A DNA stretch of 64,000 bases from contig JANNVO010000053.1 of the NCBI GenBank assembly GCA_031414475.1, positions 641-64,640 on the forward strand, given 5' to 3'. A program made the position numbers and the translations under genes. The notes below the pieces were generated by a model. The model saw only the letters and a program-made list of their open reading frames with translations, ran no database searches and was not told the origin of the DNA. Source of the DNA: Rickettsiales bacterium (GTDB taxonomy: Bacteria > Pseudomonadota > Alphaproteobacteria > Rickettsiales > Rickettsiaceae). Below are positions 44,952 through 49,236 of this stretch, piece after piece. Positions within the stretch are counted from its first letter, which is position 1; each line of letters starts with the position of its first letter.

Positions 44952-45314
44952 TCAAATATTGTATGGGATTTTGATGTCAGACGCCTGCATCGGAAAATCT
45001 TTGATATTTCTAGTAATAAACAAACTATTACTATATTTGGCTGTCGCCCATATTATAGCATCGGGTAGTTTGATCTTATGCTCTTTTCGGATAATTATGG
45101 CAATTTCAGCTATTTCTTCATTGAGGCTAATTACAGTAAAACTATCCAAAAATTCTCTGAGAGTTTCTTCAGTATCTTCTGTTGCTCCAACTAATATTTC
45201 CATCTTAGTTATGATACTTATTTGTGGATCCTTATATTGCCCAATCTCCTTACTAGCCGTCAAATTACCCAATAAATAATCTATCAATATATTAGTATCA
45301 AATACGGCTTTCAT
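44952..45314 (-). CDS. vapC: PIN-domain toxin
   Basis: AVFDTNILID, KMEILVG, KLPDAIIWATA, ITRNIKDF. Confidence 0.92.
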   Translation of the reverse strand: MKAVFDTNILIDYLLGNLTASKEIGQYKDPQISIITKMEILVGATEDTEETLREFLDSFTVISLNEEIAEIAIIIRKEHKIKLPDAIIWATAKYSNSLFITRNIKDFPMQASDIKIPYNI

Positions 45315-45538
45315 CTATTCCACTCGTCTCGTAATTTTTGCTGATACTCGATACTATCTAACTTTTTATCTTTCCATAGACCAAATGCAGATTCATAACC
45401 TTTTTGGCTTTTAGTGTAATTAGTAATATAGTTAGTTAATGCTTGCCTTATAATTTTAGCTCTAGATAATTTTTTCTTTTTAGATAAATTATCTAGAATT
45501 TTAATTTGTGCATCAGGTATATCAACTATGGTTCTCAT
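45311..45538 (-). CDS. vapB: RHH/CopG-type antitoxin
   Basis: MRTIVDIPD..LSRAKIIRQAL..AFGLWKD; 4-bp overlap with vapC. Confidence 0.88.
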   Translation of the reverse strand: MRTIVDIPDAQIKILDNLSKKKKLSRAKIIRQALTNYITNYTKSQKGYESAFGLWKDKKLDSIEYQQKLRDEWNR

Positions 45539-45644
45539 ATTAGTACTTGATTTATATTAGTTATCATCATCTGATATATTAAAACACATTATTATTCAAT
45601 TCAAGTAATATTAACAAACGGATATTAGCCTCAATTAATAGTTT

Positions 45645-47267
45645 TTAGCACTCAAGCCCTCTGATCCTTATTCCCATCGCTCCAGCAGTTTGCTCGATTG
45701 CTTGTTCGTAATTCCTCTCGATCCAATCCTTAATGAACTCACTTGAAGCTTTTAAGTTTATTGCTTTTGCTTCTGTATCCTCGGTTGCCTCAAGTTTGCT
45801 AAACCAGCTTGAGTCTATTGCCTCACCATAAATCCCAATTAGAGAGCTGCGCACCCTGCCCCATAGAGTATTTGGTAATTGCTGGGTATTTTGTTTTGTT
45901 TTATTGGAACCTTGGTTTTTGCTTATTACTTTTGGCATGATTAATTCTATCTTTTGAATTGGGTTGTATACCCCGTTCTCAAATTGTTCATGCGTTGCTT
46001 TTACTTGTGATAATACTATATCAAGCTCTCCTTGTGACAACTGCACAGCTTTATGCAAATGTATTTTGGCAATATCACCTTCTATAGCAATTGATCTATA
46101 GGCTTTAAGTAGGTTATAGGCTTTTGCAGACTCTAACACGCAAGCTAGTTTTTTCTTTAAATGCCACTGGGGTGATACTTGGGTTGAATATTCAATTTCA
46201 GTAAGATAGTTTTCTATTTCCTCCGCCCTACTCTCCTCAGAATTTAGGTTTGCCTTAATTTTAAAACTCTCGTTACTAGTTTTGACAGCATCACGCATTT
46301 CATATCGCAAAGCTTTGCTCATGTAGCTAAGAAACCCTTTTCTACTGTTGAAAACCCTATAAGTTAGGCGTTTTGACATATCATGTAATATCTCATTGGT
46401 CGCATTAAAACTAAAATCACGACCTGATAAGCTTTGTAATTCACTGCAATCTTCTTTGCTTAATGGATAAAAATCCACTAATGTCTTTGGTTTGGTAAAG
46501 ATATTTAAGGCAATATTTGTTCTAGTAACAGGCTTTTCTTTTTGCACAAAGAACGAATGGTTAGCAGTGTTTGATGTTCCTGTATTTTGTAATATAAAAT
46601 TACTATTTTTCTCAAGTTCACTAGTTCTTATCTCTAAAAAATTATTATTTTCTTTTAAAACTAAACTATTTTCTAAAAAATTAGATCCAGATTTAGCTTC
46701 GTAAGAAGCGCCAATCATAGATCTATCTTTCTTAATTTTGTTCTTAGTCTTAGTATCTATTATATAATCTCCATCGAAATGAGGAGAGACAACCTCTTCT
46801 TTAGGCGCAGAAAAACTAGTGTTGCTCTTAGTATTGTAGTTTTTACAGCCGGAAATTTTTCTTTTATTACTAGTGCAAGAATTTAAGAAATCTGAACTTA
46901 AGTGAATGAATAATCTATTGTTATACGTTTGACCTCTTAATTTGACAGTACGGAATTCTCTTGAACAAATTCCCATTTGTTCAAGCTTAACAAAAATCCT
47001 ACGAAGTTTTTCTCGATTAAAACTAAATTTCTTTTCAAAATGTTCATAAGAAGTTTGCCAAGTATCCCCAAGAAATTTATTTATATAAGCAATATCCCCA
47101 GTAGTTGAGTCTTTAACCATCTTTGGCCTATACCAATATACTATTTCAGATAGTACAGAAATTAAAGAAAGATCAGGTACTCCCCTATTGTTAGTAAATT
47201 TTTGATACCATTCACTAGGTATGATATTACCGGGATGGATAGTCGGATAATCTGATAAATAAGACAT
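45645..47267 (-). CDS. Plasmid replication initiator, Rickettsiales DnaA_N-domain type
   Basis: N-terminal GNIIPSEWY..EIVYWYRP plus HTH; C-terminal LWGRVRSSL..SWFSKL..SEFIKDWIERNY DnaA domain I-like segment. Confidence 0.8.
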   Translation of the reverse strand: MSYLSDYPTIHPGNIIPSEWYQKFTNNRGVPDLSLISVLSEIVYWYRPKMVKDSTTGDIAYINKFLGDTWQTSYEHFEKKFSFNREKLRRIFVKLEQMGICSREFRTVKLRGQTYNNRLFIHLSSDFLNSCTSNKRKISGCKNYNTKSNTSFSAPKEEVVSPHFDGDYIIDTKTKNKIKKDRSMIGASYEAKSGSNFLENSLVLKENNNFLEIRTSELEKNSNFILQNTGTSNTANHSFFVQKEKPVTRTNIALNIFTKPKTLVDFYPLSKEDCSELQSLSGRDFSFNATNEILHDMSKRLTYRVFNSRKGFLSYMSKALRYEMRDAVKTSNESFKIKANLNSEESRAEEIENYLTEIEYSTQVSPQWHLKKKLACVLESAKAYNLLKAYRSIAIEGDIAKIHLHKAVQLSQGELDIVLSQVKATHEQFENGVYNPIQKIELIMPKVISKNQGSNKTKQNTQQLPNTLWGRVRSSLIGIYGEAIDSSWFSKLEATEDTEAKAINLKASSEFIKDWIERNYEQAIEQTAGAMGIRIRGLEC

Positions 47268-47336
47268 AGTGTGCCCATATTAAAGGTTAAGTCATTGTTT
47301 AACTTGACCTTAAAGACAAATTTTGGTGCACTAAGC

Positions 47337-47450
47337 TTGCAAATTAGGTTTTATTAGGTGTACTATAAAATTCGTTTCGAAATTCGCCTTTAAAGTCTTC
47401 AGATGGTGAGACCAGTTATTTCAGTAACTGACTCACCATTTCTTTTAATT
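47337..47450 (+). ncRNA. Candidate counter-transcribed RNA (promoter to terminator) in the copG-rep leader
   Basis: TTGCAA-N18-TACTAT; hairpin ATGGTGAG..CTCACCAT (47403-47439) followed by TTCTTTTAATT on the + strand only. Confidence 0.5.
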
Positions 47451-47640
47451 CCAATACCGCTTCATAAGTATCCTCGATTTTTTTAGTTGTTTGTTTTTTC
47501 TCTTCCTGCGCTTTAAAATAAGCAAGAAGAGATACTTTAATTAGTTCAGATCTATTGAACCCAGTATTCTCCATACATTCTTCCATCTGAATAGATAATT
47601 CGACGGGAGCAGAAAAAGACATAGTGATAGATTTAGCCAT
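47416..47640 (-). CDS. CopG-like RHH protein upstream of rep
   Basis: SITMSFSAPVEL..NRSELIKVSLLAYF; 74 aa. Confidence 0.7.
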   Translation of the reverse strand: MAKSITMSFSAPVELSIQMEECMENTGFNRSELIKVSLLAYFKAQEEKKQTTKKIEDTYEAVLELKEMVSQLLK

Positions 47641-47695
47641 AACACAAGTAGAAACAATTAAGTTATAATAATTAAATTAGAATTTATTATAATAC

Positions 47696-47712
47696 CTATT
47701 GAGTGTCAATAG
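47696..47712. promoter_or_regulatory. Palindrome overlapping a minus-strand -35 (TTGACA) of the copG-rep promoter
   Basis: CTATTGA-GTG-TCAATAG. Confidence 0.45.
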
Positions 47713-47817
47713 TAAAATTGAAATTTATTTAAGTCTTATTAGGCATACTAAATTACTTATAACCAAGATCCAGCTAAATATACCAGAACTAAGACAATAA
47801 ATTTAGAAAAAAACAAC

Positions 47818-47976
47818 ACATATATACGTGTATATGTGTGTACAGTAATATTTAAACACATATAAACAGAAATACATATATATGTTGATATGTGTTTATG
47901 TGCTAGATAAGTTCCAGTAAACATAACAACCTAACGATATACATATAAGTGTATATACATATATACGTTTATATGT
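47818..47976. repeat. parS-like palindromes ACATATA-N6-TATATGT (47818, 47874, 47957)
   Basis: Two perfect copies and one with a single mismatch upstream of parA; a fourth copy at 49016. Confidence 0.6.
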
Positions 47977-48134
47977 GTATACATAAAACTACAGAACTAT
48001 ATAAATATAAAACTATATAAATATATATATTGATAATAGTATTATTTATCATTAGTATGCTCATATAAGTGATTTAATAGGCAATGTAAATATATCGCAT
48101 AATTAAACAATGCTAATGCAATTGGTGTAAACAA

Positions 48135-48797
48135 ATGAAAAAAACAAAGGTTCTAACTATTGCTAATAGAAAAGGAGGTGCGGGTAAAAGCACCTGTGCT
48201 GCTCATTTATCTCTTATAGCAGCAAGACATGGGTTAAAGACTATACTAATAGATTTAGATCCTCAAAAAACCCTGGAAACATGGTGGAAAAAAAGAGAGG
48301 AAGAAAACCCATTTTTAACTGATATAGATCCTCAAAAAATTGAGGACGTTATAAACAATTTAAATGATCATGATTTTGATTTATGTATCATTGATACTCC
48401 TGGGGATACAAGTATAAATGCAATAAGTGGATTGAAGGTAGCAGATTTAGTATTAATACCATCAAAACCGACAGCACCAGACTTGCAAGCAATAGGCAGA
48501 ACAATTGCTACTATAAAGAACCTTGATAAACCATTTTTGTTTGTTATTACACAGGCGGTTGCTCGAACAAAATTAGCTATGCAAGGTGCTAGCGTCCTCT
48601 CGGAATTTGGAACAGTAGCACCTTCTACTCTAGGTAATAGAGTGGCGTATGCGAATGCAATGCAAGCAGGATCTTCAGCTGCTGATGAAGATAAACTTGC
48701 ATCAGAAGAAATAGATTTAGTGTGGAATTTTATTAGTTCAAGATTATTTGATACAGAGGTAGGTAATGCAAAAGAAAAAGTTCGATTTAACGTCTGA
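48135..48797 (+). CDS. parA: ParA partition ATPase (short, type Ib-like)
   Basis: KGGAGKST deviant Walker A, DLDPQ, IIDTPG; no N-terminal HTH. Confidence 0.92.
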   Translation: MKKTKVLTIANRKGGAGKSTCAAHLSLIAARHGLKTILIDLDPQKTLETWWKKREEENPFLTDIDPQKIEDVINNLNDHDFDLCIIDTPGDTSINAISGLKVADLVLIPSKPTAPDLQAIGRTIATIKNLDKPFLFVITQAVARTKLAMQGASVLSEFGTVAPSTLGNRVAYANAMQAGSSAADEDKLASEEIDLVWNFISSRLFDTEVGNAKEKVRFNV

Positions 48798-49005
48798 TAT
48801 AGTAGAAGTTAAATTAGAAGAGAATGAATTAAAAAAACCTATAGCAACGATTGACCGTAACAATAAAAAGAATGTTCTTTTGACTATTGCTGTTGATGCT
48901 GATATGAGAAAAGAGTTTAAAACTTGGTGTGCTAGAAATGGTTTAAAGATGAATGAAGCTTTTATTAAAGGCTTTAATCTTCTTAAAAAGCAGGATTATA
49001 TGTAA
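48766..49005 (+). CDS. Small putative centromere-binding partner (RHH-like)
   Basis: 79 aa overlapping parA; VLLTIAVDADMRKEFKTWCARNGLKMNE. Confidence 0.7.
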   Translation: MQKKKFDLTSDIVEVKLEENELKKPIATIDRNNKKNVLLTIAVDADMRKEFKTWCARNGLKMNEAFIKGFNLLKKQDYM

Positions 49006-49010
49006 ATATA

Positions 49011-49040
49011 TGTACACATATATATGTATATATGTGTACA
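49011..49040. repeat. 30-bp palindrome containing the parS-like motif
   Basis: TGTACACATATATA-TG-TATATATGTGTACA, just after the partner stop codon. Confidence 0.7.
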
Positions 49041-49236
49041 CAGAAAGCTGTTAAAGCCGCGCGGTAATATTCTTGTCTAAATACTTATACACACTTGCAA
49101 ACAGATAAATATATACAGGTATATTTATAAACAGATATACATAAATACATACATAATATAATTATTTTTTTCTTCAGAAGTTAGGAGAGTAGGGCGGTAT
49201 TTAATATTTCAGGTAATAAATATAAGCTTAGTAGTG

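Follow-up and report, generated by a model that had tools for sequence, protein, structure and literature searches.

The DNA analyzed here, a stretch of 64,000 nucleotides from a member of the Rickettsiaceae (hereafter, the window), carries a plasmid replication gene, rep, which is preceded by a co-oriented ORF of 74 aa (47640-47416) at a distance of 148 nt. The spacer between the two genes holds a strong hairpin together with the predicted promoter, RNA, and helix features discussed below, and a promoter-like site overlain by a palindrome lies upstream of the smaller gene (Table 1). In the same plasmid, vapBC sits after rep, and an iteron-like field adjoins the region of the hairpin and leader.

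Table 1. Features of the rep locus, in window coordinates (ctRNA, countertranscript; RHH, ribbon-helix-helix)
Feature	Position	Strand	Details
rep	45645-47267	-	540 aa; C-terminal DnaA_N domain
rep leader, predicted ctRNA target	47268-47415	-	148 nt; candidate alternative helices
Hairpin 3 (leader, candidate)	47289-47305		Extension 47283-47287 pairs with 47307-47311
Conserved antisense promoter	47304-47332	+	TTGACC (47304-47309), 17-nt spacer with TGg at 47324-47326, TGCACT (47327-47332)
H2 (leader, candidate)	47380-47397 with 47306-47323		
Promoter of the sequence-only reading	47337-47366	+	TTGCAA (47337-47342), N18, TACTAT (47361-47366); 8/12
Predicted ctRNA	47339-47450	+	~110 nt; start set 7 nt past the -10, end in the U run
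Predicted ctRNA stem-loop I	47346-47398	+	Conserved base GGUUUUAnnAG pairs with CUUUAAAGUC; apex variable
Predicted ctRNA terminator	47401-47453	+	Stem-loop II 47401-47441, U run 47442-47453; overlaps the RHH stop codon (47416-47418)
RHH-like protein	47416-47640	-	74 aa; putative autorepressor (Cop-like); fold from relatives and model
Putative RHH-rep operon promoter	47681-47709	-	TTGACA (47709-47704), N17, TAAATT (47686-47681)
Operator-like palindrome	47696-47712	neutral	CTATTGA-GTG-TCAATAG; covers the minus-strand -35 TTGACA

Residues 466-527 of Rep match PF11638 (E = 2.8e-10). No HUH family match was returned for the protein in the Pfam search, and it does not classify as a rolling-circle initiator. 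Reps of Megaira plasmids are 51-54% identical to it, and its C-terminal half is 26-30% identical to the Reps of pRF, pRAM18, pRAM23, and pRM.

A reading made from the sequence alone, without database searches (hereafter, the sequence-only reading), had placed a small RHH gene directly upstream of rep. Its position holds; the fold is reached by way of relatives and a structural model, the 74-aa protein itself falling below every Pfam RHH threshold. PF01402 (RHH_1) is matched by 14 of the 28 family members of this protein (best E = 1.5e-4), and an AF2 model (pLDDT 92) has an extended N-terminus and helices at 13-26 and 30-73. The top Foldseek matches of the model, all with E > 1, include many RHH proteins (Arc, PrpA, PutA, Reg576, and ParD). 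These data support a predicted ribbon-helix-helix fold. The putative promoter of the RHH-rep operon reaches 10/12 of the consensus and is the top promoter-like site in a scan of 45000-49200; relatives keep TTGACx-N17-TA(A/G)nTT in this role. The palindrome that the sequence-only reading described over its -35 TTGACA is present as given, and TATTGA-N3-TCAATA overlies the -35 in most relatives. Its flanks co-vary (CTATTGA/TCAATAG, TTATTGA/TCAATAA, ATTATTGA/TCAATAAT, CTATTGAC-T-GTCAATAG), and several lineages have an extra upstream copy. The palindrome is a putative RHH site.

Database searches with the locus recovered few relatives: with the region as a blastn query against plasmids, the only match was the coding part of rep in Megaira plasmids, and tblastn of the RHH protein found pMC5_1/pRau01 only. 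Relatives were therefore gathered by protein patterns in metagenomes and genomes. The resulting comparison set comprises 28 related intergenic regions and 17 further rep loci; because these loci are related to one another, their counts overstate independence and correspond to ~7-10 independent lineages. The module described below also occurs in pRF, pRAM18, pRAM23, pRau01, Megaira plasmids, and a second replicon of the window's genome, and in 11 of 21 scorable rep loci chosen regardless of an RHH gene. By the criteria applied, it was not found in pRPR or the R. bellii plasmid, nor, in the survey of rep loci, in several chromosomal or decayed rep copies.

The hairpin that overlaps the RHH stop codon has a folding energy of -19.6 kcal/mol (z = -3.5; 0/200 shuffles as good) and, like the palindrome, exceeds chance. 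It had been described as a strong hairpin with a U-tract in the antisense direction only, which is confirmed in the window (tails UUUCUUUUAAUU on the plus strand and CUGAAGAC, with no U run, on the minus strand), and the helix is conserved in relatives. Across 14 relatives, 92.8% of cells in this predicted terminator helix are paired, versus 20-48% with slid partner columns; five pairs have changed on both sides, and the covariation score was reached by 0/500 shuffles. RNAalifold on the antisense alignment found 6 compensatory pairs and recovered the terminator alone. The A run that gives rise to the U tail encodes Lys/Glu codons of the RHH gene, and its conservation is therefore partly coding. 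A plus-strand ORF from an ATG inside the hairpin is shorter than 30 aa and arises from the palindromic ATGGTGAG.

As a whole, the predicted ctRNA folds at -26.3 kcal/mol (z = -3.6; 0/200 shuffles as good) and its reverse complement at -21.8 kcal/mol (z = -2.6), a difference of -4.5 kcal/mol. Its layout of 5' tail, stem-loop I, and terminator stem-loop recurs in two-stem-loop form in all close relatives; stem-loop I, too variable in length to align, was judged by single-sequence folds and is predicted in every one of them. A folding advantage of the predicted RNA over its reverse complement is seen in 20 of 21 loci (mean -8.5 kcal/mol) and in all 17 further ones (mean -9.9 kcal/mol), for a total of 37/38, and the folding bias of the window's coding windows is opposite or neutral. 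Wobble pairs point the same way: within the close group, the terminator has 9 antisense-only wobbles versus 4 sense-only, and in three other lineages G-U pairs of the antisense terminator hairpin correspond to A.C on the sense strand. The G-U wobbles of stem-loop I are likewise C.A mismatches on the sense strand and contribute to this asymmetry, which argues for an RNA of the antisense strand. Sequence and comparison together support the predicted terminator as well as the fold and strand of the putative ctRNA.

Rfam's plasmid antisense families (CopA, RNAI, ctRNA_pGA1, ctRNA_pND324, ctRNA_pT181, ctRNA_p42d, and others) gave no match in a cmscan of 47000-48200 run at E up to 10. The single match within 47268-47470 was to the unrelated RF02590, at chance level (14 bits against a cut-off of 208 bits); the remaining matches were spurious, miRNA-like, and located in the AT-rich repeat field. 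A search of the window's genome for a ProQ/FinO chaperone gene returned zero PF04352 matches.

An antisense promoter equivalent to that at 47304-47332 is found in 28 of 28 related spacers (TTGAC[TCA]-N16/17-TAnAnT, 9-11/12, often with TGn), its -35 lying 24-66 nt upstream of the rep ATG in all loci. In the alignment, the hexamer columns and the TG are invariant and the flanks vary. Shuffling gives P = 0.27 for the window alone versus 8e-5 combined across 7 lineages, and the best antisense promoter score exceeded the best sense score in all 13 shuffle-tested spacers. On the sense strand, no promoter of at least 9/12 is found in the window's spacer or in most relatives' spacers; a TTTAAA-N18-TTTAAT site considered as a rep promoter in some relatives was rejected for want of an A at -11. 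From this comparison, the site at 47304-47332 is the conserved candidate for the antisense promoter. The window's own -10, TGCACT, is the only one in the family with a G at the second position, where 16/16 close relatives have the critical A, and the promoter may have little or no activity in this copy.

The predicted ctRNA is fully complementary to the rep leader ~70-180 nt upstream of the rep ATG. Given the distance of 24-66 nt between the antisense -35 and the ATG across all loci, the RNA would begin no closer than 55 nt to the start codon and so could not mask the ribosome-binding site of rep. The fold of the sense leader has z = -3.5. Within this leader, H2 is 85% paired, and its wobbles favor neither strand (25 sense-only versus 29 antisense-only); this measure gives no support for H2 as a helix of the sense RNA. 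The extension of hairpin 3 has 10 sense-only wobbles versus 2 antisense-only, and hairpin 3 with its extension is followed in the window by a weak U-rich UAAUAU that a terminator scan with standard criteria did not report. In 14 relatives outside the window's group, ~200 upstream 14-mers were compared for pairing with the 45 nt preceding the ATG. The best of them is the upstream hairpin's 5' arm in 11 relatives; in the other cases, the match overlaps that arm (pRAM23), lies just before the stem (L026), or is absent (L036). The predicted long-range pairing in these relatives amounts to -12 to -19 kcal/mol and occurs in about seven co-varying sequence versions. The window's own group has no Shine-Dalgarno hairpin, and the 14-mer scan gave it no consistent long-range partner. 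The spacer has no small reading frame that is conserved, and the upstream ATG of some relatives does not stay in frame.

The sequence-only reading had drawn the antisense RNA differently, starting it near 47373 from TTGCAA-N18-TACTAT and giving it ~75 nt, with a small 5' hairpin and the terminator only. Those hexamers are present in the window. At 8/12 with an 18-nt spacer, the site nonetheless falls under the reporting threshold of the promoter scan and below a level that shuffled sequence reaches equally often (18 sites of at least 9/12 in the region versus 21.9 expected from shuffles). It is conserved as a promoter in no relative: the closest ones (L027 and L028) lack a -10 there, the site is degenerate elsewhere, and TACTAT at that spacing occurs in the window alone among family members. 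TTGCAA is itself conserved, within the 5' end of the predicted RNA, and an RNA starting near 47373 would begin only after the 5' half of the conserved stem-loop I. Because the window alone has lost the conserved A at position 2 of the -10 and alone carries TACTAT, a shifted promoter is conceivable, and the site could serve as a secondary or replacement start in this plasmid; as the account of the locus, we consider the shorter RNA improbable. With the conserved promoter lying 33 nt further upstream, the predicted transcript is instead ~110 nt long and has two stem-loops. Conservation among DnaA_N-rep relatives thus upholds the hairpin and the module but not the promoter first named.

The defective -10 of the window is also compatible with a locus that has no working ctRNA, in which the hairpin acts on the sense mRNA as an RHH 3' end or stabilizer or as an attenuator between RHH and rep; control of the leader would then come down to its own folding plus translation of RHH, whose stop codon lies in the hairpin loop. 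The structured sense leader (z = -3.5) and the sense-only wobbles in the hairpin 3 extension fit this explanation, as does the U run that follows the hairpin on the sense side in several close relatives (including L028-L034), where the hairpin may terminate or attenuate sense transcripts too. The sense tail of the window (CUGAAGAC), however, has no such run, folding of the antisense strand is favored in 37/38 loci including the window (-4.5 kcal/mol), and the sense strand offers no reading of the conserved -35, TG, and -10 columns. These data make an exclusively sense-strand role unlikely. Reading the repeats as DNA-level sites (for Rep, the RHH protein, or a host factor, or as a single-strand initiation hairpin) rather than as RNA structure would account for the two copies of CTTTAAAG, itself palindromic, for the adjacent iteron-like field, and for H2, which resembles an inverted DNA repeat in having no strand preference. 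The compensatory changes, however, preserve pairing rather than sequence, the asymmetry of G-U versus A.C is strongly one-sided, and the structure lies between a promoter and a U run in each lineage despite unrelated sequences; we give this explanation very little credence.

The best explanation of the whole, with a probability of roughly 0.7, is that the locus is a replication-control module of a Megaira-like Rickettsiaceae plasmid that includes both a repressor and a ctRNA. The minus-strand promoter would transcribe the RHH gene, with rep co-transcribed as part of a single operon, and the RHH protein most likely represses its own promoter through the palindrome over the -35. On the opposite strand, a sigma-70-type promoter would drive a non-coding RNA of ~110 nt that ends at an intrinsic terminator overlapping the RHH stop codon. 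Pairing of this RNA with the leader most likely locks a fold that blocks rep translation, an effect that would be indirect because the start site is not covered. In relatives of other sequence types, the 5' arm of the upstream hairpin would base-pair with a strand whose alternative role is to close a hairpin over the Shine-Dalgarno sequence, and the ctRNA would sequester that arm; in the window's group, the candidate alternatives are H2 (open) and the extended hairpin 3 just before the ATG (closed). The antisense RNA most likely limits plasmid copy number. Of the CopG-like and antisense dual control originally proposed, comparison supports the overall design; the promoter and the RNA length did not survive, and the predicted RNA would not block the ribosome-binding site directly.

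The closest parallel in design is pMV158 (pLS1), with its copG-repB operon and antisense RNAII (PMC5717011, PMC4485353). Shared features are a small RHH repressor gene directly upstream of and co-oriented with rep, a palindromic operator (putative here) at the operon promoter, a separately promoted and intrinsically terminated countertranscript (predicted here) from the cop-rep spacer, and two negative loops (predicted here) on a single rate-limiting initiator. The initiator here is of the DnaA_N/winged-helix type and belongs to large low-copy Rickettsiaceae plasmids, whereas that of pMV158 is the HUH rolling-circle RepB. The predicted RNA of ~110 nt has two stem-loops, compared with ~50 nt for RNAII, and its terminator overlaps the 3' end of the repressor gene. 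RNAII is held to mask the ribosome-binding site; the RNA predicted here leaves a gap of at least 55 nt to the rep start and would have to inhibit indirectly. The 74-aa protein shows no detectable homology to CopG beyond the fold.

In the IncI-alpha and IncB plasmids (ColIb-P9 and pMU720), Inc RNA or RNAI controls repZ or repA from a distance, its target being a stem-loop of the leader well upstream of the ribosome-binding site. A local hairpin occludes that site, and opening it takes long-range pairing with the upstream stem-loop, which the antisense RNA prevents. The long-range complementarity in relatives outside the window's group suggests the same switch, although the window's group has no clearly identified activator pairing. 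Unlike these plasmids, the locus has no conserved repY-like leader peptide frame and does have an upstream gene for a putative repressor protein, and replicon family and hosts are unrelated.

The copB-copA-tap-repA arrangement of R1 similarly combines an upstream repressor gene co-transcribed with rep (as probably here) and an antisense RNA gene in the spacer that affects rep translation indirectly (as predicted here; PMC5717011). In R1, however, CopB does not control its own expression but represses a second promoter, located internally, and CopA acts via the tap leader peptide (PMC5717011); the locus here shows no sense promoter inside the spacer and no leader peptide. Inc18 plasmid pIP501, with CopR and attenuation by RNAIII, has a sense terminator just before rep that forms upon binding of the antisense RNA; the candidate for such an element in the window would be hairpin 3 with the weak UAAUAU, which fell outside the standard criteria of the terminator scan.

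Control by a repressor plus a countertranscript is a known plasmid design. In the literature, we found no description of it for DnaA_N-type rickettsial replicons, in agreement with the sequence-only reading, which knew of none for this Rep family. A broader reading, in which a family-wide riboregulator combines countertranscripts of ~100 nt, a switch that opens the ribosome-binding site, modular cassettes, and incompatibility by sequence type, is possible but, with all parts taken jointly, falls slightly short of even odds. Such a riboregulator would cover most Rickettsiaceae DnaA_N replicons, including the Rickettsia plasmids used for shuttle vectors, the Megaira plasmids, and many metagenomic relatives. 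Its RNA would remove the upstream arm of the long-range helix that opens the hairpin over the ribosome-binding site. The predicted RNA-leader cassette is modular: it is found alongside at least three RHH repressors that are unrelated, or without any, and alongside Rep N-termini that are likewise unrelated.

To our knowledge, their own plasmids are the only replicating vectors for Rickettsia and its relatives, which are obligate intracellular bacteria. Rickettsia-type plasmids are kept at ~1-2 copies per chromosome (PMC3244465), and the copy number of a resident plasmid drops when a shuttle vector is present (PMC9004397); the literature we found does not say which element governs copy number or incompatibility in these plasmids. 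A conserved antisense RNA gene before rep would be that element; the coexistence of vectors would be predictable, and the antisense promoter would offer a simple handle to raise or lower vector copy number. If the broader reading is correct, the sequence type of the cassette would set incompatibility groups, so that one Rickettsia could keep several such plasmids. The design of repressor plus countertranscript would extend from small Gram-positive and enterobacterial plasmids to the large plasmids of intracellular Alphaproteobacteria, with the RNA cassette swapped as a module among differing repressor and initiator genes.

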